A stretch of 64,000 bases of DNA from Escherichia coli (GCF_046105845.1 NZ_CP151004.1); one strand, 5' to 3'. Positions 1-20,377 are shown, counted from the stretch's first letter. Notes: generated by a model from the letters alone, not told the origin. Program-made: numbers and translations.

Positions 1-1026
1 GAAATGCTGCGTCCCGGGCGCAAACTAGCCTCGCTGCTGGTGTCGCGTATCAAGGTGATGGCGCGGCTGGACATTGCCGAAAAGCGCGTGCCGCAGGATG
101 GACGTATTGCGCTGCTGCTGGGCGGTCGGGCGATTGACGTGCGTGTCTCCACCATGCCTTCTGCCTGGGGCGAGCGCGTGGTGCTGCGACTGCTGGACAA
201 AAACCAGGCCCGCCTGACGCTGGAGCGTCTGGGGCTGAGTCATGAACTGACCGCGCAGTTGCGCCAGCTACTGCACAAACCGCACGGTATCTTTCTGGTG
301 ACGGGGCCGACGGGTTCCGGCAAAAGCACCACGCTGTACGCCGGATTGCAGGAGCTGAACAACCATTCGCGCAACATTCTCACGGTTGAAGACCCCATCG
401 AATACATGATTGAAGGGATCGGTCAGACGCAGGTTAACACCCGCGTCGGCATGACCTTCGCCCGTGGCCTGCGCGCGATTTTGCGTCAGGACCCGGATGT
501 GGTGATGGTCGGTGAAATCCGCGATACCGAAACCGCAGAAATCGCTGTTCAGGCGTCGCTCACGGGGCACCTGGTACTTTCCACGCTGCATACCAACACG
601 GCGGTGGGGGCGATTACGCGTTTGCAGGATATGGGCGTCGAGCCTTTCCTGCTCTCTTCCAGTCTGACGGGCGTGATGGCGCAGCGACTGGTCCGCACGC
701 TGTGCCCAGACTGCCGCCAGCCTGCACCTGCCACTGACGAAGAAAAACGCCTGCTGGGAATTACCGACGCGCGTACTGTCACGCTTTACCATCCGCAGGG
801 CTGCCCCGCCTGTAATCACAAAGGTTTCCGCGGGCGTACTGCCATCCATGAGTTGATCGTGGTGGACGCCACATTGCGTGATTTGATCCACCGTCAGGCC
901 GGGGAACTGGAGCTGGAACGTTATGTCCGGCAACAGTCTGCGGGCATCCGCAGCAATGGCATTGAGAAAGTGCTCGCCGGAGAAACCTCTCTCGATGAAG
1001 TTCTGCGGGTAACCATGGAGGCGTAA
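1..1026 (+). CDS. gspE: Type II secretion ATPase GspE, 5' end cut by window edge
   Basis: ORF 4..1026 in frame to window start; Walker [11 protein letters not shown]-terminal CxxC...CxxC motif; followed by gspF-M. Confidence 0.93.
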
Positions 1027-2249
1027 TGGCACTGTTTTACTATCAGGCGCTGGAGCGTAATGGTCGCAAAACCAAAGGCATGATTGAGGCGGATTCAGCG
1101 CGTCATGCCCGCCAGTTGTTGCGCGGTAAAGAGCTTATCCCCGTGCACATTGAAGCCAGGATGAATGCTTCGACAGGGGGAATGTTGCAGCGTCGGCGGC
1201 ACGCACATCGTCGCGTGGCGGCGGCAGATCTGGCGCTGTTCACACGCCAACTGGCAACGTTAGTACAGGCAGCAATGCCGCTGGAAACCTGCTTACAGGC
1301 GGTCAGTGAGCAAAGTGAAAAACTGCATGTGAAAAGCCTCGGAATGGCGCTGCGCAGTCGGATTCAGGAAGGCTATACCCTGTCGGACAGCCTGCGCGAA
1401 CATCCCCGCGTCTTTGACTCCCTGTTTTGTTCGATGGTCGCTGCCGGAGAAAAATCCGGACATCTCGACGTGGTGCTCAATCGCCTGGCGGATTACACCG
1501 AACAGCGGCAGCGCCTGAAATCACGATTGTTGCAGGCCATGCTCTATCCGCTGGTATTGCTGGTGGTGGCAACGGGCGTGGTCACTATTTTGCTGACGGC
1601 AGTGGTGCCGAAAATCATCGAACAGTTCGATCACCTCGGACACGCGCTACCCGCCTCCACCCGAATGCTCATCGCCATGAGCGACGCGTTACAGGCCAGC
1701 GGCGTTTACTGGCTGGCGGGTTTTCTGGGGCTTCTGGTGCTGGGGCAACGGTTACTCAAAAATCCTGCTATGCGCCTGCGCTGGGATAAAACCTTGCTGC
1801 GCCTGCCCGTGACGGGGCGTGTTGCGCGCGGGCTGAATACGGCGCGTTTTTCCCGCACATTAAGCATCCTCACCGCCAGCAGTGTTCCGCTACTGGAAGG
1901 TATTCAGACCGCTGCCGCCGTGTCGGCAAATCGCTATGTCGAGCAACAACTGCTGCTGGCGGCAGATCGCGTCCGCGAAGGAAGCAGTCTGCGCGCCGCG
2001 CTGGCGGAGTTGCGCCTGTTCCCGCCGATGATGCTGTACATGATCGCTTCCGGCGAACAGAGCGGCGAACTGGAAACCATGCTTGAGCAGGCCGCAGTCA
2101 ACCAGGAACGGGAATTTGATACCCAGGTGGGGCTGGCGTTAGGGCTGTTTGAACCGGCGCTGGTGGTGATGATGGCGGGCGTGGTGCTGTTTATCGTCAT
2201 CGCCATCCTCGAACCGATGCTGCAACTGAACAATATGGTTGGAATGTAA
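1026..2249 (+). CDS. gspF: Type II secretion inner-membrane platform protein GspF
   Basis: 407-aa ORF, polytopic membrane protein; ATG overlaps gspE stop (TAATG). Confidence 0.92.
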   Translation: MALFYYQALERNGRKTKGMIEADSARHARQLLRGKELIPVHIEARMNASTGGMLQRRRHAHRRVAAADLALFTRQLATLVQAAMPLETCLQAVSEQSEKLHVKSLGMALRSRIQEGYTLSDSLREHPRVFDSLFCSMVAAGEKSGHLDVVLNRLADYTEQRQRLKSRLLQAMLYPLVLLVVATGVVTILLTAVVPKIIEQFDHLGHALPASTRMLIAMSDALQASGVYWLAGFLGLLVLGQRLLKNPAMRLRWDKTLLRLPVTGRVARGLNTARFSRTLSILTASSVPLLEGIQTAAAVSANRYVEQQLLLAADRVREGSSLRAALAELRLFPPMMLYMIASGEQSGELETMLEQAAVNQEREFDTQVGLALGLFEPALVVMMAGVVLFIVIAILEPMLQLNNMVGM

Positions 2250-2265
2250 TTTACGGAGTTATCAC

Positions 2266-2721
2266 ATGAATTCGTTATCCCGCACACAAAAACCACGGGC
2301 AGGTTTTACCCTGCTGGAAGTGATGGTGGTGATTGTTATTCTTGGCGTCCTGGCAAGTCTGGTGGTGCCTAACCTGTTGGGCAATAAAGAGAAAGCGGAT
2401 CGGCAAAAAGCCATCAGCGATATCGTGGCGCTGGAGAATGCGCTGGATATGTACCGACTGGATAACGGGCGTTATCCGACTACCGAGCAGGGGCTTGAGG
2501 CGCTGATCCAGCAACCGGCCAATATGGCGGACGCCCGCAACTACCGTACCGGTGGATACATCAAACGACTGCCAAAGGATCCGTGGGGCAATGATTATCA
2601 GTATCTCAGCCCGGGTGAAAAAGGGCTGTTTGATGTTTATACCCTGGGGGCAGATGGTCAGGAAAACGGGGAGGGCGCTGGCGCAGATATCGGTAACTGG
2701 AATTTGCAGGAGTTTCAGTAA
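2266..2721 (+). CDS. gspG: Type II secretion major pseudopilin GspG
   Basis: Prepilin leader ending GFTLLEVMVV; GGAG 8 nt upstream of ATG 2266; track ORF start 2239 is probably an in-frame upstream extension. Confidence 0.9.
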   Translation: MNSLSRTQKPRAGFTLLEVMVVIVILGVLASLVVPNLLGNKEKADRQKAISDIVALENALDMYRLDNGRYPTTEQGLEALIQQPANMADARNYRTGGYIKRLPKDPWGNDYQYLSPGEKGLFDVYTLGADGQENGEGAGADIGNWNLQEFQ

Positions 2722-2724
2722 TCA

Positions 2725-3288
2725 GTGCCTGAACGCGGATTCACACTTCTGGAAATCATGCTGGTGATTTTCCTTATCGGCCTTGCCAGTGCGGGCGTGG
2801 TACAGACGTTTGCGACCGCTTCAGAGCCGCCTGCGAAAAAAGCGGCGCAGGATTTTCTGACTCGCTTTGCGCAGTTTAAGGACAGGGCAGTGATCGAAGG
2901 GCAAACACTCGGTGTACTAATCGATCCTCCTGGCTATCAGTTTATGCAGCGTCGTCACGGGCAGTGGTTGCCCGTTTCTGCGACCCGCTTATCGGCACAG
3001 GTTACGGTGCCAAAACAGGTGCAGATGCTGTTACAACCCGGCAGTGATATCTGGCAGAAGGAGTATGCGCTGGAACTGCAGCGTCGTCGCCTGACGCTGC
3101 ACGATATTGAACTGGAGCTGCAAAAAGAGGCGAAAAAGAAGACGCCGCAGATCCGTTTTTCGCCTTTTGAACCCGCCACGCCGTTTACGCTGCGCTTCTA
3201 CTCGGCGGCGCAAAACGCATGTTGGGCGGTAAAACTGGCACACGATGGCGTGTTATCCCTCAATCAATGTGATGAGAGGATGCCATGA
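2725..3288 (+). CDS. gspH: Type II secretion minor pseudopilin GspH
   Basis: GTG start; N-terminal GFTLLEIMLV prepilin motif. Confidence 0.85.
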   Translation: MPERGFTLLEIMLVIFLIGLASAGVVQTFATASEPPAKKAAQDFLTRFAQFKDRAVIEGQTLGVLIDPPGYQFMQRRHGQWLPVSATRLSAQVTVPKQVQMLLQPGSDIWQKEYALELQRRRLTLHDIELELQKEAKKKTPQIRFSPFEPATPFTLRFYSAAQNACWAVKLAHDGVLSLNQCDERMP

Positions 3289-3656
3289 AGCGCGGATTTA
3301 CCTTGCTGGAAGTGATGCTCGCGCTGGCGATTTTTGCGCTGGCGGCCACGGCGGTGTTACAGATTGCCAGCGGTGCGCTGAGTAATCAGCACGTTCTTGA
3401 GGAAAAAACAGTAGCGGGCTGGGTAGCTGAAAACCAGACCGCGCTGCTCTACCTGATGACCCGCGAGCAGCGGGTGGTCAGGCACCAGGGCGAGAGTGAT
3501 ATGGCAGGAAGCCGCTGGTACTGGCGAACCACACCGCTGAATACCGGTAACGCGCTGCTCCAGGCGGTGGATATTGAAGTCAGCCGTCACGAAGATTTTT
3601 CGTCGGTGATTCAGTCACGACGCGCCTGGTTTAGCGCCGTGGGAGGCCAACAGTGA
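3285..3656 (+). CDS. gspI: Type II secretion minor pseudopilin GspI
   Basis: N-terminal KRGFTLLEVMLA prepilin motif; ATGA overlap with gspH stop. Confidence 0.87.
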   Translation: MKRGFTLLEVMLALAIFALAATAVLQIASGALSNQHVLEEKTVAGWVAENQTALLYLMTREQRVVRHQGESDMAGSRWYWRTTPLNTGNALLQAVDIEVSRHEDFSSVIQSRRAWFSAVGGQQ

Positions 3657-4258
3657 GAAGGACTTGCGCTGGTTTCACGTTACTGGAAATGCTGGTGGCA
3701 ATTGCCATTTTTGCCTCGCTGGCACTGATGGCGCAGCAGGTGACTAACGGCGTCACACGCGTGAATAGCGCCGTCGCCGGACACGATCAAAAACTAAACC
3801 TCATGCAGCAAACGATGAGTTTTCTGACCCACGATCTGACACAAATGATGCCGCGTCCGGTAAGAGGCGATCAGGGCCAGCGTGAACCTGCGTTACTGGC
3901 GGGCGCTGGCGTGCTGGCGTCTGAGAGTGAAGGGATGCGCTTTGTGCGTGGCGGCGTGGTTAACCCGTTGATGCGTCTGCCACGCAGTAATCTGCTCACC
4001 GTCGGTTACCGCATTCATGACGGCTATCTCGAACGGTTAGCCTGGCCGCTGACCGACGCAGCAGGCAGCGTGAAGCCGACAATGCAAAAGTTGATTCCGG
4101 CGGATTCGCTCCGTTTGCAGTTCTACGACGGCACGCGCTGGCAGGAGAGCTGGTCATCAGTACAGGCAATCCCAGTGGCGGTGCGCATGACCCTGCATTC
4201 GCCACAATGGGGCGAGATTGAACGCATCTGGTTGTTACGCGGGCCGCAATTATCATGA
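3653..4258 (+). CDS. gspJ: Type II secretion minor pseudopilin GspJ
   Basis: GTG start overlapping gspI stop (GTGA); N-terminal AGFTLLEMLVA prepilin motif. Confidence 0.85.
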   Translation: MRRTCAGFTLLEMLVAIAIFASLALMAQQVTNGVTRVNSAVAGHDQKLNLMQQTMSFLTHDLTQMMPRPVRGDQGQREPALLAGAGVLASESEGMRFVRGGVVNPLMRLPRSNLLTVGYRIHDGYLERLAWPLTDAAGSVKPTMQKLIPADSLRLQFYDGTRWQESWSSVQAIPVAVRMTLHSPQWGEIERIWLLRGPQLS

Positions 4259-5232
4259 TCACCTCACCACCAAAACGCGGAATGGCACTGGTCGTGGTGC
4301 TGGTATTGCTGGCGGTTATGATGCTGGTGACCATCACGCTTTCCGGGCGAATGCAGCAACAACTTGGGCGAACGCGCAGCCAGCAGGAGTACCAGCAGGC
4401 GCTGTGGTACAGCGCCAGTGCGGAAAGCCTGGCGTTGAGCGCACTCAGTCTGAGCCTGAAAAATGAAAAGCGCGTGCATCTGGCGCAGCCGTGGGCTTCC
4501 GGCCCTCGTTTTTTCCCACTGCCGCAGGGGCAAATCGCCGTCACTCTGCGTGACGCACAGGCCTGCTTTAACCTGAATGCCCTCGCTCAGCCGACGACGG
4601 CGTCGCGTCCTATCGCGGTACAACAACTGATTGCCCTGATCTCGCGCCTGGATGTGCCTGCTTATCGGGCCGAACTGATAGCCGAAAGCCTGTGGGAGTT
4701 TATTGACGAGGACCGCAGCGTGCAGACGCGTCTGGGGCGTGAAGACAGCGAGTATCTCGCCCGCTCGGTGCCGTTCTACGCCGCCAATCAACCGCTGGCC
4801 GATATCAGTGAGATGCGCGTGGTACAGGGAATGGACGCCGGGCTTTATCAAAAACTGAAACCGCTGGTCTGTGCGCTGCCGATGACCCGCCAGCAAATCA
4901 ACATCAATACCCTGGACGTCGCGCAAAGTGTGATTCTTGAGGCGCTGTTTGACCCGTGGTTAAGCCCTGTTCAGGCGCGGGCGTTATTACAACAACGTCC
5001 GGCGAAGGGCTGGGAAGATGTCGATCAGTTTCTTGCGCAGCCGCTACTTGCTGACGTCGATGAGCGTACTAAAAAACAGCTAAAAACCGTCCTGAGCGTG
5101 GACAGCAATTACTTCTGGCTGCGTTCAGATATCACCGTGAATGAGATTGAACTGACGATGAACTCGTTAATTGTCCGCATGGGCCCACAACACTTTTCGG
5201 TTCTCTGGCATCAGACAGGAGAAAGTGAGTGA
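4255..5232 (+). CDS. gspK: Type II secretion minor pseudopilin GspK
   Basis: 325-aa ORF with hydrophobic N-terminus (RGMALVVVL); ATGA overlap with gspJ stop. Confidence 0.85.
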   Translation: MITSPPKRGMALVVVLVLLAVMMLVTITLSGRMQQQLGRTRSQQEYQQALWYSASAESLALSALSLSLKNEKRVHLAQPWASGPRFFPLPQGQIAVTLRDAQACFNLNALAQPTTASRPIAVQQLIALISRLDVPAYRAELIAESLWEFIDEDRSVQTRLGREDSEYLARSVPFYAANQPLADISEMRVVQGMDAGLYQKLKPLVCALPMTRQQININTLDVAQSVILEALFDPWLSPVQARALLQQRPAKGWEDVDQFLAQPLLADVDERTKKQLKTVLSVDSNYFWLRSDITVNEIELTMNSLIVRMGPQHFSVLWHQTGESE

Positions 5233-6407
5233 GTTCCATGCTTGAGATTTTTATCCCGCTTTGCGCCTCCGATCCCATCCGTTGGCAGCACCGTACCACC
5301 GACGTGGAGCACGGCATCTGGTCTGACGTTGACAACGAACAGCTCCAGCAATGGCTGCAAACTGATGCGATTCGACTCTACATTCCCGGCGAATGGATCA
5401 GCGTCTGGCAGGTTGAACTGCCTGATATCCCCCGCAAGCAGATACCGACTATTCTGCCCGCCTTGCTGGAAGAAGAGCTGAACCAGGATATCGATGAACT
5501 GCATTTCGCCCCGTTGAAAATCGACCAGCAACTGGCAACCGTAGCAGTGATTCACCAACAGCATATGCGCAACATTGCGCAGTGGTTGCAGGCAAACGGC
5601 ATCACCCGCGCTACCGTCGCGCCGGACTGGATGTCCATTCCTTGTGGGTTTATGGCTGGCGATGCGCAACGGGTTATCTGCCGCATCGATGAATGCCGGG
5701 GATGGAGCGCCGGGCGGGCGCTGGCTCCGGTCATGTTCCGCGCCCAGCTCAATGAGCAGAATTTACCGCTTTCGCTAACCGTAGTCGGCATTGCACCGGA
5801 AGAGCTATCAGCATGGGCTGGCCCAGATGCTGAACGTCTGACCGTTACGGCTCTGCCCGCCATTACCACTTATGGCGAACCGGAAGGAAACCTGCTAACA
5901 GGGCCGTGGCAGCCCCGCGTCAGCTACCGAAAACAGTGGGCGCGCTGGCGGGTGATGATTCTGCCGATATTGCTGATTCTGGTTGCGCTGGCAGTGGAAC
6001 GGGGCGTGACGTTATGGAGCGTCAGCGAACAGGTGGCGCAAAGCCGCACCCAGGCGGAAAAAAAGTTCTTAACACTGTTCCCGGAGCAGAAGCTGATTGT
6101 GAATTTGCGTTCCCAGGTGACGATGGCGCTGAAAAAATATCGCCCGCAGGCCGACGATACCCGGCTGCTCGCTGAGTTGTCAGCGATAGCCAGCACCCTG
6201 AAATCAGCATCACTTTCCGACATCGAAATGCGTGGTTTCACCTTTGATCAAAAACGCCAGACGCTCCACCTTCAGTTGCAGGCCGCGAACTTTGCCAGCT
6301 TCGACAAACTGCGTAGCGCACTGGCGGCAGATTATGTTGTGCAACAGGACGCGTTACAGAAAGAGGGTGATGCGGTTTCCGGCGGCGTAACGTTGCGGAG
6401 GAAATAA
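5229..6407 (+). CDS. gspL: Type II secretion inner-membrane protein GspL, full length
   Basis: 392-aa ORF; GTG start overlapping gspK stop (alternative ATG at 5238); single TM segment mid-protein. Confidence 0.82.
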   Translation: MSSMLEIFIPLCASDPIRWQHRTTDVEHGIWSDVDNEQLQQWLQTDAIRLYIPGEWISVWQVELPDIPRKQIPTILPALLEEELNQDIDELHFAPLKIDQQLATVAVIHQQHMRNIAQWLQANGITRATVAPDWMSIPCGFMAGDAQRVICRIDECRGWSAGRALAPVMFRAQLNEQNLPLSLTVVGIAPEELSAWAGPDAERLTVTALPAITTYGEPEGNLLTGPWQPRVSYRKQWARWRVMILPILLILVALAVERGVTLWSVSEQVAQSRTQAEKKFLTLFPEQKLIVNLRSQVTMALKKYRPQADDTRLLAELSAIASTLKSASLSDIEMRGFTFDQKRQTLHLQLQAANFASFDKLRSALAADYVVQQDALQKEGDAVSGGVTLRRK

Positions 6408-6408
6408 C

Positions 6409-6945
6409 ATGTTACGCGATAAATTTATTCACTATTTTCAGCAATGGCGTGAACGCCAGTTAAGCCGTGGCGAACACTGGCTTACACAACACCTGGCGGG
6501 GCGTTCTCCGCGTGAAAAGGGCATGTTACTGGCAGCGGTGGTGTTCCTGTTTAGCGTCGGATATTACGTCCTCATCTGGCAGCCGTTGAGCGAACGGATA
6601 GAACAACAGGAGACGTTGTTGCAGCAGCTGGTGGCAATGAACACCCGACTGAAGAGCGCCGCGCCGGATATTATTGCGGCGCGAAAATCCGCCACAACAA
6701 CGCCTGCGCAGGTATCTCGGGTCATCAGTGACAGTGCTTCCGTGCACTCAGTGGTCATCAAGCGGATAGCCGAGCGCGGGGAGAATATTCAGGTCTGGAT
6801 AGAACCTGTGGTGTTTAATGACCTGCTGAATTGGCTTAATGCGCTGGATGAAAAGTATGCGCTGCGGGTGACACAAATTGATGTCAGTGCAGGTGAGAAG
6901 CCTGGGATGGTGAATGTGCAGCGGCTGGAGTTTGGAGGGGGGTAA
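6409..6945 (+). CDS. gspM: Type II secretion protein GspM
   Basis: 178-aa ORF with N-terminal TM helix; GGAG RBS; position matches K-12 yghD next to pheV. Confidence 0.82.
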   Translation: MLRDKFIHYFQQWRERQLSRGEHWLTQHLAGRSPREKGMLLAAVVFLFSVGYYVLIWQPLSERIEQQETLLQQLVAMNTRLKSAAPDIIAARKSATTTPAQVSRVISDSASVHSVVIKRIAERGENIQVWIEPVVFNDLLNWLNALDEKYALRVTQIDVSAGEKPGMVNVQRLEFGGG

Positions 6946-7055
6946 GTATCAGGAGATTAATATCAATAAAATTACTCTCGTTAACGTGGCGAGAGTAATT
7001 CCCCCAGACCTCATAAGCTAAGTTTTTTCGTGAAGGTTATTGCCAGATCCAAAAG

Positions 7056-7080
7056 CAAAAACCCGCCTTGTGGGCGGGTT
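7056..7080 (-). terminator. Rho-independent terminator of pheV
   Basis: Minus-strand hairpin AACCCGCC-CACA-AGGCGGGTT followed by TTTTGCTTTT, directly 3' of the tRNA. Confidence 0.55.
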
Positions 7081-7092
7081 CTTAAGAATTAG

Positions 7093-7168
7093 TGGTGCCC
7101 GGACTCGGAATCGAACCAAGGACACGGGGATTTTCAATCCCCTGCTCTACCGACTGAGCTATCCGGGC
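7093..7168 (-). tRNA. pheV: tRNA-Phe (anticodon GAA)
   Basis: Reverse complement reads the 76-nt E. coli tRNA-Phe sequence, GCCCGGATAGCTCAGTCGGTAGAGCAGGGGATTGAAAATCCCCGTGTCCTTGGTTCGATTCCGAGTCCGGGCACCA. Confidence 0.96.
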
Positions 7169-8002: not shown

Positions 8003-8373
8003 TATCTGATTTTCTTATTATGAACGTTTGGCACCTTCGATGGCTTGTTTGTTCGCAAAGTCCTGGCTTGCACGCTCTGGTGAAAGGTGCCATGATTGCG
8101 CGAATTTTCTCCTCTCTGTACGGAGTTTGCCCGATGCACGCCACCTCCTTACATTCTCTCGCTTATCGCCGTTTCGCGCGAAACTCCTCCCCTTTTCTGC
8201 TCATGCGGTGAAGTTAACGCACGCTCACTGCAGGACAACAGTAAAATCAGAGCGTTTCTGCTTTTACTGATGTCTGGCGGTCGGAGCTGGTGACCAGTTT
8301 GACCCATATCTCGTGGGGCAGGGTTTTTCACCTTGTCCGGTATTCTTACTTCCCCGAAACGGGTTTTGCGCTT

Positions 8374-10509
8374 ATGAAATCAATGAATATTGCCGCCAGT
8401 AGTGAACTGGTATCCCGACTTTCTACTCATCGCCGCGTGGTGGCGTTGGGAGATACTGATTTTACGGACGTCGCGGCAGTCGTCATTACCGCTGCGGATA
8501 GTCGCAGTGGCATTCTTGCGTTGCTTAAGCGCACCGGTTTTCATCTACCGGTGTTTTTGTATTCCGAACATGTTGTTGAATTACCTGCGGGCGTTACGGC
8601 GGTAATCAACGGCAACGAGCAGCAGTGGCTGGAGCTGGAATCCGCAGCCTGTCAGTATGAAGAGAATTTGCTGCCACCGTTTTATGACACGCTGACGCAG
8701 TACGTTGAGATGGGCAACAGCACCTTTGCTTGCCCTGGACATCAACATGGTGCGTTTTTTAAAAAGCATCCTGCCGGACGCCATTTTTACGATTTCTTTG
8801 GTGAGAACGTCTTTCGCGCCGATATGTGTAACGCTGACGTAAAATTGGGCGATCTGCTTATTCATGAAGGATCGGCGAAAGATGCGCAGAAATTCGCAGC
8901 CAAAGTCTTTCATGCCGATAAAACCTATTTTGTACTGAACGGCACATCGGCAGCGAATAAAGTGGTGACGAATGCGCTGTTAACGCGTGGCGATCTGGTG
9001 CTCTTCGACCGTAACAACCATAAGTCGAATCATCACGGCGCGCTGATTCAGGCGGGGGCGACGCCGGTCTATCTGGAAGCTTCACGTAACCCGTTTGGTT
9101 TCATTGGCGGTATTGATGCGCACTGTTTTAATGAAGAGTATCTGCGCCAGCAAATTCGCGACGTTGCGCCAGAAAAAGCTGAGTTGCCGCGCCCGTTTCG
9201 CCTGGCGATTATTCAGTTGGGAACCTATGACGGCACTGTCTATAACGCCCGTCAGGTGGTCGATACCGTTGGGCATCTGTGTGATTACATTCTGTTTGAT
9301 TCCGCATGGGTCGGTTACGAACAGTTTATCCCGATGATGGCGGATAGCTCGCCGCTGCTGTTAGAACTTAACGAAAACGATCCGGGGATCTTTGTGACTC
9401 AGTCGGTGCACAAACAGCAGGCGGGATTCTCACAGACGTCGCAGATCCATAAAAAAGATAACCATATCTGCGGACAGGTGCGTTTTTGCCCGCATAAGCG
9501 GTTGAATAATGCCTTTATGCTCCATGCTTCTACCAGCCCGTTCTATCCGTTGTTTGCCGCGCTGGACGTTAACGCCAAAATTCATGAAGGGGAGAGTGGG
9601 CGTCGGCTGTGGGCTGAGTGTGTAGAGTTGGGGATTGAGTCGCGCAAGGCGATTCTTGCGCGCTGTAAGCTGTTCCGCCCGTTTATCCCGCCCGTTGTTG
9701 ATGGCAAATTGTGGCAGGATTATCCGACATCAGTGTTAGCCAGCGACCGCCGTTTTTTCAGTTTTGAGCCGGGGGCGAAGTGGCACGGCTTTGAAGGATA
9801 TGCCGCGGATCAGTATTTTGTTGATCCGTGCAAGCTGTTACTCACTACACCAGGTATTAATGCCGAAACTGGCGAATATAGCGACTTTGGCGTTCCGGCG
9901 ACGATTCTGGCGCACTATCTGCGTGAGAACGGCATTGTGCCGGAGAAGTGCGATCTCAATTCCATTCTGTTCTTATTAACGCCGGCGGAAAGCCACGAGA
10001 AGCTGGCACAACTGGTGGCGATGCTGGCGCAATTTGAACAGCATATTGAGGATGACTCGCCGCTGGTTGAGGTGTTGCCGAGCGTTTATAACAAATATCC
10101 GGTGCGCTATCGCGACTACACCCTGCGCCAGTTGTGTCAGGAGATGCACGATCTGTATGTCAGTTTCGACGTCAAAGACCTACAAAAAGCGATGTTCCGC
10201 CAGCAGAGTTTCCCGTCAGTGGTGATGAACCCCCAGGACGCGCATAGCGCTTATATTCGCGGTGAAGTGGAGTTGGTGCGGATTCGTGATGCCGAAGGGC
10301 GAATTGCGGCAGAAGGGGCGTTGCCTTATCCACCAGGCGTGCTTTGCGTGGTGCCCGGGGAAGTCTGGGGTGGGGCGGTTCAACGTTATTTCCTTGCGCT
10401 GGAAGAAGGGGTGAATTTGTTGCCGGGATTTTCGCCGGAGCTGCAAGGTGTCTATAGCGAAACCGATGCAGATGGCATGAAACGATTGTACGGTTATGTG
10501 TTGAAGTAA
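8374..10509 (+). CDS. speC: Ornithine decarboxylase, constitutive (SpeC)
   Basis: 711-aa product from ATG 8374 (MKSMNIAASSEL...); track ORF begins upstream at 8290. Confidence 0.95.
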   Translation: MKSMNIAASSELVSRLSTHRRVVALGDTDFTDVAAVVITAADSRSGILALLKRTGFHLPVFLYSEHVVELPAGVTAVINGNEQQWLELESAACQYEENLLPPFYDTLTQYVEMGNSTFACPGHQHGAFFKKHPAGRHFYDFFGENVFRADMCNADVKLGDLLIHEGSAKDAQKFAAKVFHADKTYFVLNGTSAANKVVTNALLTRGDLVLFDRNNHKSNHHGALIQAGATPVYLEASRNPFGFIGGIDAHCFNEEYLRQQIRDVAPEKAELPRPFRLAIIQLGTYDGTVYNARQVVDTVGHLCDYILFDSAWVGYEQFIPMMADSSPLLLELNENDPGIFVTQSVHKQQAGFSQTSQIHKKDNHICGQVRFCPHKRLNNAFMLHASTSPFYPLFAALDVNAKIHEGESGRRLWAECVELGIESRKAILARCKLFRPFIPPVVDGKLWQDYPTSVLASDRRFFSFEPGAKWHGFEGYAADQYFVDPCKLLLTTPGINAETGEYSDFGVPATILAHYLRENGIVPEKCDLNSILFLLTPAESHEKLAQLVAMLAQFEQHIEDDSPLVEVLPSVYNKYPVRYRDYTLRQLCQEMHDLYVSFDVKDLQKAMFRQQSFPSVVMNPQDAHSAYIRGEVELVRIRDAEGRIAAEGALPYPPGVLCVVPGEVWGGAVQRYFLALEEGVNLLPGFSPELQGVYSETDADGMKRLYGYVLK

Positions 10510-15718: not shown

Positions 15719-15760
15719 GAAAGCATACGGGCGATGACAAAGTTAAAAAAAGCGCTCGGA

Positions 15761-15872
15761 TAGTCCCCTCGCCCCTCCGGGGAGAGGGTTAGGGTGAGGG
15801 GAACAGACCAGCACTGGCGCGATTATTTACCCTCACCCCGACCCTCTCCCTAAAAGGGCGAGGGGGAAAACC
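15761..15872. repeat. GC-rich composite palindromic intergenic repeat (two inverted copies of a ~40-bp motif)
   Basis: Left arm CCCCTCGCCCCTCCGGGGAGAGGGTTAGGGTGAGGG; reverse complement of right arm CCCCCTCGCCCTTTTAGGGAGAGGGTCGGGGTGAGGG; arms about 20 bp apart. Confidence 0.55.
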
Positions 15873-15954
15873 GTGCCCCTTTTGACTTTTAAGCCAGTTT
15901 GTTATCAATCTGGGGCCAGCAAATGCTGGCCTGATTTGTTCTTGAGGGAAGACT

Positions 15955-19035: not shown

Positions 19036-19078
19036 TTTGCCGGATAATATAAAAAGTTATCCGGCAAATTATTTTTTA
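19036..19078 (+). terminator. Rho-independent terminator after yggM
   Basis: 12-bp stem TTTGCCGGATAA/TTATCCGGCAAA, 9-nt loop, then TTATTTTTT; the T-tract overlaps the stop codon of the convergent TRAP large-permease gene. Confidence 0.75.
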
Positions 19079-20377
19079 CATTAGCCCTAGTAGCTGTGGA
19101 ATGAACAAGGATATTTGCGGGATGTAAGTGATCATCATCAACGCGATTAACAATGCGGCATAAAATGGCAGCAATGGTTTGATCAAATGTTGAATCTTCA
19201 CACCTGAAATAGAACAACCAACAAATAGCGCACTACCCACCGGCGGTGTTAACAGCCCAATACAAAGGTTGGCCACCATCATAATACCGAAATGTACCGG
19301 ATCCATTCCCAGCTCTTGTGCAATCGGCAAGAAGATTGGTGTGAAGATTAGTACAGCCGGTGTCATGTCCATAAAGATGCCGACAATTAATAAGACGATA
19401 TTAATCAGCAGCAATATGACCAGTGGGTTATCAGAAATCCCCATCAACGCGTCGCTGATCATATAAGGAATATCAGCATTGGTCATTGCCCAGGACATGC
19501 CCACGGAAAAACCGATCAACAGTAATACAATCGAAGTGGTAACAACCGATTCCAGAATCAGTTTGGGTAAATCGCGCCATTTTACTTCCCGGTAAATCAG
19601 CACCGAGAGGATAAATGTGTAGACAACGGCAATTGCTGACGCTTCAGTTGCGGTAAAAATGCCGCCCAGAATGCCGCCCATTACAATGAACACCAGAAGC
19701 AAACTTGGTAAGGCATCCAGAAACGCTTTACATGCCTGAGCAAAGGTTGCTCTTTCTGAAAGTGGGTAGCCACGGCGTTTAGCAATAATGCCGCAGACTA
19801 TCATTACCGCGAGACCCATTAAGATCCCTGGCAAATATCCCGCCATAAATAGCGATGCTACAGAAACGCCGCCAGCTGTCAGGGAAAACACAATTAACAC
19901 GTTTGAGGGCGGTATCAGTAATCCAGTAATACAAGATGAGACGTTTACAGCGGTAGAAAATGCCGGATCATAACCTTCTTTGGTCTGAATGGGATTCAGT
20001 GTGCCACCAACGGCAGCAGCTGCCGCAACAGCTGAACCAGAAATGGAACCAAACATCATATTCGCCAGGACGTTCACATGACCAAGCGAACCAGGAACGC
20101 GGCCAACCATTACCTGGGCGAGGTTAATCAAACGTATCGCAATACCGCCGCTGTTCATCAGCGTTCCGGCAAAGATGAAAAAGGGGATTGCTAATAGGGC
20201 AAAGTTATCCAGTCCATTAGCCAGTCGCTGCGAAACAGTGATTGCCGCGATATCCTAGGGAAACATCAACAGCATTGAAGCTACAGTGGCAATACCGATT
20301 GAGAACGAAATGGGCACACCAATAAAGACCAGCACAAAAAAACAGCCAAACAGTGTAAGCGCGATATAACTATCCAT
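19076..20377 (-). pseudogene. TRAP transporter large permease (DctM family), interrupted by an in-frame TAG at codon 41
   Basis: ATG near 20377 directly after the small-permease stop; translation reads MDSYIALTLFGCFFVLVFIGVPISFSIGIATVASMLLMFP-stop-DIAAITVSQRL..., and the track's 360-aa ORF (19076..20158) restarts at internal Met 74 in the same frame. Confidence 0.8.

Follow-up and report, generated by a model that had tools for sequence, protein, structure and literature searches.

Tight gene junctions in a type II secretion operon of Escherichia coli suggest translational coupling, with gspG probably initiated independently

In Escherichia coli, T2SS-beta, a type II secretion system (T2SS), is encoded by the operon sslE-pppA-gspS-gspCDEFGHIJKLM. 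Its substrate is SslE or the heat-labile toxin LT in enterotoxigenic E. coli (ETEC) H10407, enteropathogenic E. coli (EPEC) E2348/69 and E. coli W (PMC3707838). The DNA analyzed here, called the window, is a stretch of 64,000 nucleotides (nt) from E. coli (NZ_CP151004.1), and its positions 1–6945 are the distal part of this operon, probably one compact polycistronic unit, which is like those of the three strains in genes, gene order and chromosomal site. The focus is on the junctions between its successive gsp genes. Translational coupling is known to be most efficient at stop-to-start distances of −4 to +3 nt (review PMC12548453) and was shown for four of the five native E. coli ATGA pairs tested (PMC6728339). 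A spacer of about 20 nt nearly abolishes reinitiation, and among pairs at short distance, genes for subunits of heteromeric complexes are enriched 4.5-fold (PMC10666635). Seven of the eight gsp junctions have a spacing of −4 to +3 nt, with F/G (+16) as the sole exception.

Nine co-directional genes were identified on the plus strand in the order gspE (3' part), gspF, G, H, I, J, K, L and M (yghD). In a profile search, the products of gspF through gspM matched NCBIfam equivalogs above the curated cutoffs. These are the inner-membrane platform protein gene gspF (1026–2249; TIGR02120, 489 bits versus a cutoff of 424), the major pseudopilin gene gspG (2266–2721; ATG start; TIGR01710, 192 bits), and the minor pseudopilin genes gspH (2725–3288; GTG start; TIGR01708, 186.9 bits), gspI (3285–3656; TIGR01707, 86.7 bits), gspJ (3653–4258; GTG start; TIGR01711, 176 bits) and gspK (4255–5232; NF037980, 286 bits), followed by gspL (5229–6407; GTG start; TIGR01709, 179.8 bits) and gspM (6409–6945; NF007274, 404 bits, full-length match 1–178). 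The T2SS ATPase gene gspE (4–1026; TIGR02533, 8.9e-168, profile positions 151–486; also gspE in the annotation of the closest E. coli genome) continues past the left end of the window and stayed below the curated cutoff only owing to this truncation. The prepilin-peptidase cleavage motif, a Gly before the cut followed by F/M-T/A-L-L/V-E, was present at the N-termini of GspG (RAG/FTLLE), GspH (ERG/FTLLE), GspI (KRG/FTLLE) and GspJ (CAG/FTLLE), with TIGR02532 matches; the leaders are MNSLSRTQKPRAG/FTLLE for GspG, MKRG/FTLLE for GspI and MRRTCAG/FTLLE for GspJ. The N-terminus of GspK is KRG/MALVV, without Glu5. GspK matched chain K of PDB 3CI0, the ETEC GspK-GspI-GspJ heterotrimer (E = 3e-192).

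The junctions were read directly off the sequence and compared with the list of open reading frames (ORFs). At E/F, the gspE stop TAA (1024–1026) and the gspF ATG (1026) form TAATG (1024–1028; spacing −1), with GGAGG 3 nt upstream of the ATG. Overlaps of −4 were found as ATGA at H/I (3285–3288) and at J/K (4255–4258), the latter without a recognizable Shine-Dalgarno (SD) sequence, and as GTGA at I/J (3653–3656), preceded by GGGAGG (3641–3646), and at K/L (5229–5232), within GTGAGTGA and preceded by AGGAG (5216–5220). The genes gspG and gspH lie in one reading frame and are joined as TAA-tca-GTG (2719–2727; +3; gspG stop 2719–2721, gspH GTG 2725), and gspL and gspM as TAA-c-ATG (6405–6411; +1; gspL stop 6405–6407, gspM ATG 6409), with GGAGG at 6397–6401. 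Only gspF and gspG are set apart, by a spacer of 16 nt (2250–2265) that contains GGAG (2254–2257) between the gspF stop (2247–2249) and the gspG ATG (2266). The initial annotation had reported stop/start overlaps at five of seven junctions; the five overlaps stand as read, but nine genes form eight junctions, which is also the sum of the junctions that it lists. Its description of the remaining junctions, with spacers of 3–16 nt at F/G and G/H and a single base plus a GGAG-type ribosome-binding site at L/M, was borne out. To treat G/H and L/M as a class apart from the overlaps is artificial, as both fall within the range of efficient coupling. Just upstream of the extent of the window, gspD and gspE overlap by 1 nt in the annotation of NZ_CP082357.1, the closest complete E. 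coli genome, by the Prokaryotic Genome Annotation Pipeline (PGAP). The element GTGAGTGA was also considered as a slippage-prone repeat; this was unsupported, with two copies only, identical in relatives.

The frequency of tight junctions in the operon was compared with genome-wide and local baselines. In the E. coli genome, 707 of 2987 co-directional pairs (24%) are spaced between −8 and +6 nt (PMC10666635). Seven of the eight gsp junctions belong to this class (binomial p = 2.6e-4). The 50 kb beside the operon served as the local baseline, in the VCSW7 annotation, and pairs separated by 50 nt or less were regarded as compact. Overlaps of −4 or −1 were present at 5/8 gsp junctions versus 6/39 co-directional pairs in the adjacent 50 kb (Fisher p = 0.011), and the −8 to +6 class accounted for 7/8 gsp junctions versus 7/19 of the nearby compact pairs (p = 0.02). 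Measured against gene pairs in general, the enrichment is thus real; measured against compact operons, it is modest, and the operon, although tighter than the average, does not depart far from their range. In the same annotation, the baseline overlaps between about 14.7 and 48.3 kb include trmB/yggL (−1), dctM/dctQ of a tripartite ATP-independent periplasmic (TRAP) transporter (−1), hemW/rdgB (−8) and yggU/yggT (−4), as well as ruvX/yqgE (−1), yggP/glpX (−4) and fumE/yggC (−4).

All eight junction types and all three GTG starts recur in E. coli VCSW7 (about 3.4% divergent) and in E. albertii (about 9.4% divergent). For each of the eight starts, the start region was defined as the start codon plus 25 nt upstream, giving 224 sites. 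In comparison with VCSW7, these regions contained 0/224 mismatches where 7.6 were expected (p = 4e-4); in comparison with E. albertii, 12 mismatches were observed and 21 expected (p = 0.02). This conservation is consistent with extra constraint on the start regions. Gene by gene, the operon reaches 95.5–97.8% identity to its best counterpart in a set of 5,426 complete E. coli genomes, with a best operon identity of 96.7%, while the flanks are colinear with VCSW7 and the flanking core genes (6896–56838) are 98.5–98.9% identical; identity to E. albertii is only about 91%. The operon identity of 96.7% had prompted the idea of an origin in an Escherichia species other than E. coli, which was rejected on account of the flanking genes and of the low identity to E. 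albertii. Since the gsp genes are less similar than their flanks, the window is therefore assigned to E. coli, and its T2SS-beta allele beside pheV is somewhat divergent.

In order to describe the junctions beyond these relatives, one genome per species was scanned with a GspG alignment, which yielded 80 loci from 27 gammaproteobacterial genera. Starts were called with an unvalidated picker of our own, based on start-codon type and pairing with the anti-SD sequence and restricted to the vicinity of the N-terminus implied by the hidden Markov model (HMM). Three independent rules were applied over the 80 loci (nearest HMM N-terminus; codon weight plus anti-SD pairing; longest ORF), and they gave qualitatively one picture. 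Per-genus figures are genus-level medians. The gene order EFGHIJKLM was kept in all loci long enough to hold the whole cluster. Overlaps were found at H/I in 23 of 26 genera, at I/J in 24 of 27 and at J/K in 25 of 27. At L/M, which was scorable in 56 loci only and gave an absurd value of −457 in one of them, 16 of 20 genera had an overlap and three more were within 6 nt. E/F was overlapped or spaced by at most 6 nt in 22 of 25 genera and K/L was overlapped in 15 of 26; G/H was variable, and the F/G spacer exceeded 20 nt in 19 of 25 genera. A measure without any start call, the number of nucleotides between the upstream stop and the conserved Gly(−1) codon, agreed with the start-based survey: its medians were 14 nt for gspH to gspI, 22 nt for gspI to gspJ, 23 nt for gspJ to gspK, 44 nt for gspG to gspH and 80 nt for gspF to gspG. 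The leaders in the survey loci span 7–11 residues. The apparent gspL start in Vibrio, Aliivibrio, Photobacterium and Enterovibrio is a GTG that lies 29–35 nt inside gspK; this long K/L overlap of the Vibrionaceae is conserved and lies beyond the range reported as efficient for reinitiation.

The initiation sites of the window differ in their SD sequences and in their accessibility. The SD duplex energies of gspF, gspH, gspJ, gspL and gspM ranged from −6.9 to −10.2 kcal/mol, and these SD sequences, like the weak one of gspI, are embedded in the 3'-terminal part of the preceding gene, as is common but not required in coupled pairs. For gspK an embedded SD sequence is absent, the anti-SD duplex energy being only −2.6 kcal/mol. 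The initiation regions of gspF, gspG, gspK and gspM are open (2nd to 27th percentile of operon positions), and no ribosome-binding site in the operon is more accessible than that of gspG, with 5.6 kcal/mol required for opening (2nd percentile). The weak SD sequence of gspI is combined with a closed structure (17.6 kcal/mol, 92nd percentile). For gspH, a GTG start is combined with an SD sequence 11 nt away, and 14.1 kcal/mol are required for opening (67th percentile).

Taken with the conserved junction geometry, these features make termination–reinitiation, with gspG initiated independently, the probable mode of translation of the operon. A ribosome ending the upstream gene would be positioned to restart on the next gene, and the SD sequences embedded in the upstream coding sequence may aid this restart. 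Translational output would then be linked from gspE to gspF, along gspG, gspH, gspI, gspJ, gspK and gspL, and from gspL to gspM, with no link from gspF to gspG. Because of its 16-nt spacer and its most accessible ribosome-binding site, gspG is probably initiated independently; it would recruit ribosomes itself, and an excess of its product could result. At gspH, the weak GTG start may step expression down for the minor pseudopilins, among which GspI, GspJ and GspK form a 1:1:1 tip complex. At most, H-I-J-K would form one coupled chain.

Several points weigh against this account. In the Klebsiella Pul system, L and M form a 1:1 heterodimer, and the genes pulL and pulM are adjacent, but when the whole system was expressed, the PulL:PulM ratio in the cells was about 1:20 (bioRxiv 10.1101/2022.07.16.500195). 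Thus, a tight junction is no guarantee of equal steady-state amounts. The stoichiometric co-translation of the pseudopilin set, as suggested by the initial annotation, is too strong a reading in the light of this ratio and of the position of the major pseudopilin gene gspG behind the sole junction that appears uncoupled. When only nearby pairs at most 50 nt apart are considered, the −4/−1 overlaps (5/8 versus 6/19) are not significantly enriched (p = 0.14). The start calls of the survey are home-made and unvalidated, and its sample is mostly Vibrio and Shewanella, though it was summarized per genus. The searchable literature contained no experimental coupling test for any gsp operon, and nothing usable on ribosome profiling of T2SS genes or on abundance ratios of the Xcp pseudopilins. 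Nunn and Lory reportedly gave XcpT:U:V:W as 16:1:1:4 in 1993; this ratio was not used as evidence. With good SD sequences of their own, gspF, gspJ, gspL and gspM could be translated predominantly by independent initiation. De novo initiation despite an ATGA overlap was indeed observed for bioBF, the one uncoupled pair among the five tested in E. coli (PMC6728339). The overlaps might accordingly be a by-product of genome compaction and of drifting stop and start codons, each gene being translated from its own SD sequence without coupling or ratio-setting. Besides bioBF, the PulM:PulL ratio and the recognizable SD sequences, that of gspH included, such an origin would suit −4 and −1 being the commonest spacings genome-wide (PMC10666635, PMC12548453) and present in 6/19 compact pairs nearby, and it would suit the drift of exact overlap lengths among genera, from −1 to −35. 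It is nevertheless unlikely, given that H/I, I/J and J/K stay overlapped in 23–25 of 26–27 genera while F/G stays spaced, and that conservation is higher around the junctions than in the remaining operon. Independent translation is also difficult to reconcile with gspK, which lacks an SD sequence, and with gspI, whose weak one is buried in closed structure, and the E. coli overlap pairs tested so far were mostly coupled (PMC6728339, PMC10666635). Alternatively, coupling could act mainly via RNA unfolding, an established mechanism (review PMC12548453), in which upstream ribosomes melt a structure that masks the downstream ribosome-binding site and fresh ribosomes initiate, while the terminating ribosome does not restart. 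The relatively closed initiation regions of gspI and gspH would fit such a mode, as would the Vibrionaceae K/L overlaps of −32 and −35 nt, which are too long for efficient reinitiation (PMC12548453). The initiation regions of gspF, gspG, gspK and gspM, however, are open, and unfolding as the main route is regarded as improbable.

If the starts were mis-assigned and the true ones lay downstream, some overlaps would be illusory, and gspL is the gene for which this had been raised: an in-frame ATG (5238–5240) is present three codons downstream of GTG 5229, initiation is stronger at ATG than at GTG codons, and in the window the homology-based and SD-based start rules of the survey both selected it, a choice that was overruled from close relatives. 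However, this ATG, codon 4 of gspL, is specific to the window; the codon is ATC (Ile) in VCSW7 and GTA (Val) in E. albertii, where the GTG alone is available. GspL/EpsL of the Vibrionaceae starts with GTG-AGC/AAC-GAA (V-S/N-E-x-L) at the aligned position. Since ATG 5238 is absent from VCSW7 and E. albertii and Vibrio EpsL begins with GTG-Ser, GTG 5229 is the conserved gspL start. The position of AGGAG also favors it, 6–8 nt from GTG 5229 versus 15–17 nt from ATG 5238, for which the duplex calculation gave a poor SD spacing of 15 nt, and gspL begins with GTG in 53/77 loci according to our start picker. The exclusive use of ATG 5238, named in the initial annotation as the observation that would overturn its starts, thus found no support. 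As an observation in its own right, this ATG may serve as a secondary start three codons into GspL. For gspH, the in-frame stop of gspG lies two codons before GTG 2725 and the next ATG lies 3' of the cleavage site; because of this, GTG 2725 is the only start that preserves the leader MPERG/FTLLE. An in-frame TAG (3632–3634) makes GTG 3653 the first and sole gspJ start before CAG/FTLLE. The N-termini of GspF, GspL and GspM match the conserved N-termini of homologues, GspF with MALFYYQAL as compared to MAAFEYKAL of distant homologues (MA.F.Y.AL across genera), and all eight starts are identical in the PGAP annotation of NZ_CP082357.1. The start codons chosen initially, including the three GTG starts at 2725, 3653 and 5229, are therefore right by PGAP agreement, by the constraint from leader and cleavage site, by homologue N-termini and by relatives lacking ATG 5238, and their mis-assignment is very improbable. 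N-terminal sequencing of processed pseudopilins, proposed earlier as a check, would be blind to the start codon because prepilin peptidase removes the leader.

A broader interpretation is that the junction pattern represents a conserved expression programme for T2SS pseudopili beyond mere compaction. Its elements are a true spacer and an open ribosome-binding site ahead of gspG, an entry into gspH that varies and is often weak (GTG), and an uninterrupted series of overlaps through H-I-J-K. This interpretation is put forward tentatively and is rather doubtful. If it were true, a high ratio of major to minor pseudopilins and equimolar subunits of the tip complex would be hard-wired in the operon, and breaking the overlaps would alter secretion dynamics, as the minor-to-major stoichiometry does in type IVa pili. 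The arrangement of overlapped minor and set-apart major pseudopilin genes fits the idea that the ratio of minor to major pilins controls filament dynamics.

The finding as such is correct but ordinary, since operons of bacteria frequently have such a layout. Established already are the operon with its annotation, the frequent occurrence of ATGA and TAATG junctions and the association of such junctions with complex subunits, and the same coupling inference has been published for the homologous type IVa minor-pilin operon (PMC13249403). The regularity across genera, in which the minor pseudopilin genes overlap and the major one stands apart, is a tidy description without surprise; specialists would expect it, and it opens no new question. 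Practical consequences are limited to the confirmed start codons, the three GTG codons included, of a virulence-associated secretion operon. These are useful for annotation, for non-polar deletions and for expression constructs, because cuts at the junctions disturb the expression of downstream genes.

Regarding transcription and genomic context, a scan of the plus strand within the operon gave no promoter-like or terminator-like sites in excess of shuffled controls, which is consistent with a single transcript. Just 3' of the gspM stop, a perfect inverted repeat, AATTACTCTCG...CGAGAGTAATT (about 6969–7000), lacks a T-run, and a strong 12-bp terminator hairpin (7056–7084) lies on the minus strand, downstream of a minus-strand tRNA gene (7096–7168). 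The tRNA was the sole match of the Rfam scan and corresponds to tRNA-Phe as annotated in VCSW7; yqgA and speC follow. The chromosomal site adjoins pheV, yqgA and speC, as for the T2SS-beta operon. While the window itself begins inside gspE, the upstream genes sslE-pppA-gspS2-gspC-gspD were seen in the colinear genome NZ_CP082357.1. The longest ORF of speC runs from GTG 8290 (8290–10509, 739 aa) as compared to 711 aa annotated in VCSW7, which also has a 25-aa hypothetical protein annotated just upstream of speC. Further away, a non-aligning segment between yggL and yggN (15741–15898) measures about 157 nt versus about 104 nt in VCSW7 and overlaps a 46-aa hypothetical protein annotated there. 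The gene for the TRAP transporter large permease (19076–20377, minus strand) carries an in-frame TAG at about 20255–20257, near codon 41 (MLLMFP, stop, DIAAI). Apart from this stop, the gene shares 99.8% identity with its intact VCSW7 counterpart of 434 aa, and it may be a nonsense pseudogene or reflect a sequencing error.

In comparison with known systems, the operon is closest to T2SS-beta of ETEC H10407, EPEC E2348/69 and E. coli W, with the genes, order and chromosomal site in common, with a GspK that matches the ETEC crystal-structure chain 3CI0_K, and with identical PGAP starts and junctions in the closest E. coli genome. It differs from that system by its allele, with the per-gene identities of 95.5–97.8% given above, and by the window-specific ATG at gspL codon 4. 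T2SS-alpha of E. coli K-12 (gspC-O) is similar in gene order and junction logic. Its reference annotation gives overlaps at E/F (−4), H/I (−4), I/J (−8), J/K (−8), L/M (−4) and M/O (−1), and spaced junctions at F/G (+9), G/H (+7) and K/L (+14). Unlike the window operon, T2SS-alpha, a paralogous system of the Klebsiella type, is encoded elsewhere in the chromosome, with K/L spaced and with overlaps of 8 nt rather than 4 nt at I/J and J/K.

The eps operon of the V. cholerae type and other T2SS operons of gammaproteobacteria share the EFGHIJKLM order, the overlapped minor pseudopilin genes and the spaced F/G junction with the window, and in Vibrio-type eps operons gspL has the same GTG start and the same N-terminus. 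In contrast to the window, the overlaps of the Vibrionaceae are often longer (−14 at H/I and I/J, −32 or −35 at K/L), and in Vibrio the F/G and G/H spacers far exceed those of the window (medians 53 and 42 nt). The coupled E. coli pairs hyfHI, astDB, menDH and others (Huber et al. 2019, 2023; PMC6728339, PMC10666635) resemble the gsp pairs in their ATGA/GTGA or TAATG geometry, in having the SD sequence within the upstream gene and in encoding subunits of heteromeric complexes. Those pairs were tested with reporter constructs, whereas the gsp junctions are known here from sequence. The V. cholerae type IVa pilus genes fimT-pilW-pilX-pilV encode homologous minor pilins, partially overlap and were read by their authors as coupled for stoichiometry (PMC13249403). 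They differ from the gsp genes in belonging to a competence pilus whose major pilin gene lies outside the operon, and coupling was assumed there rather than measured (PMC13249403).

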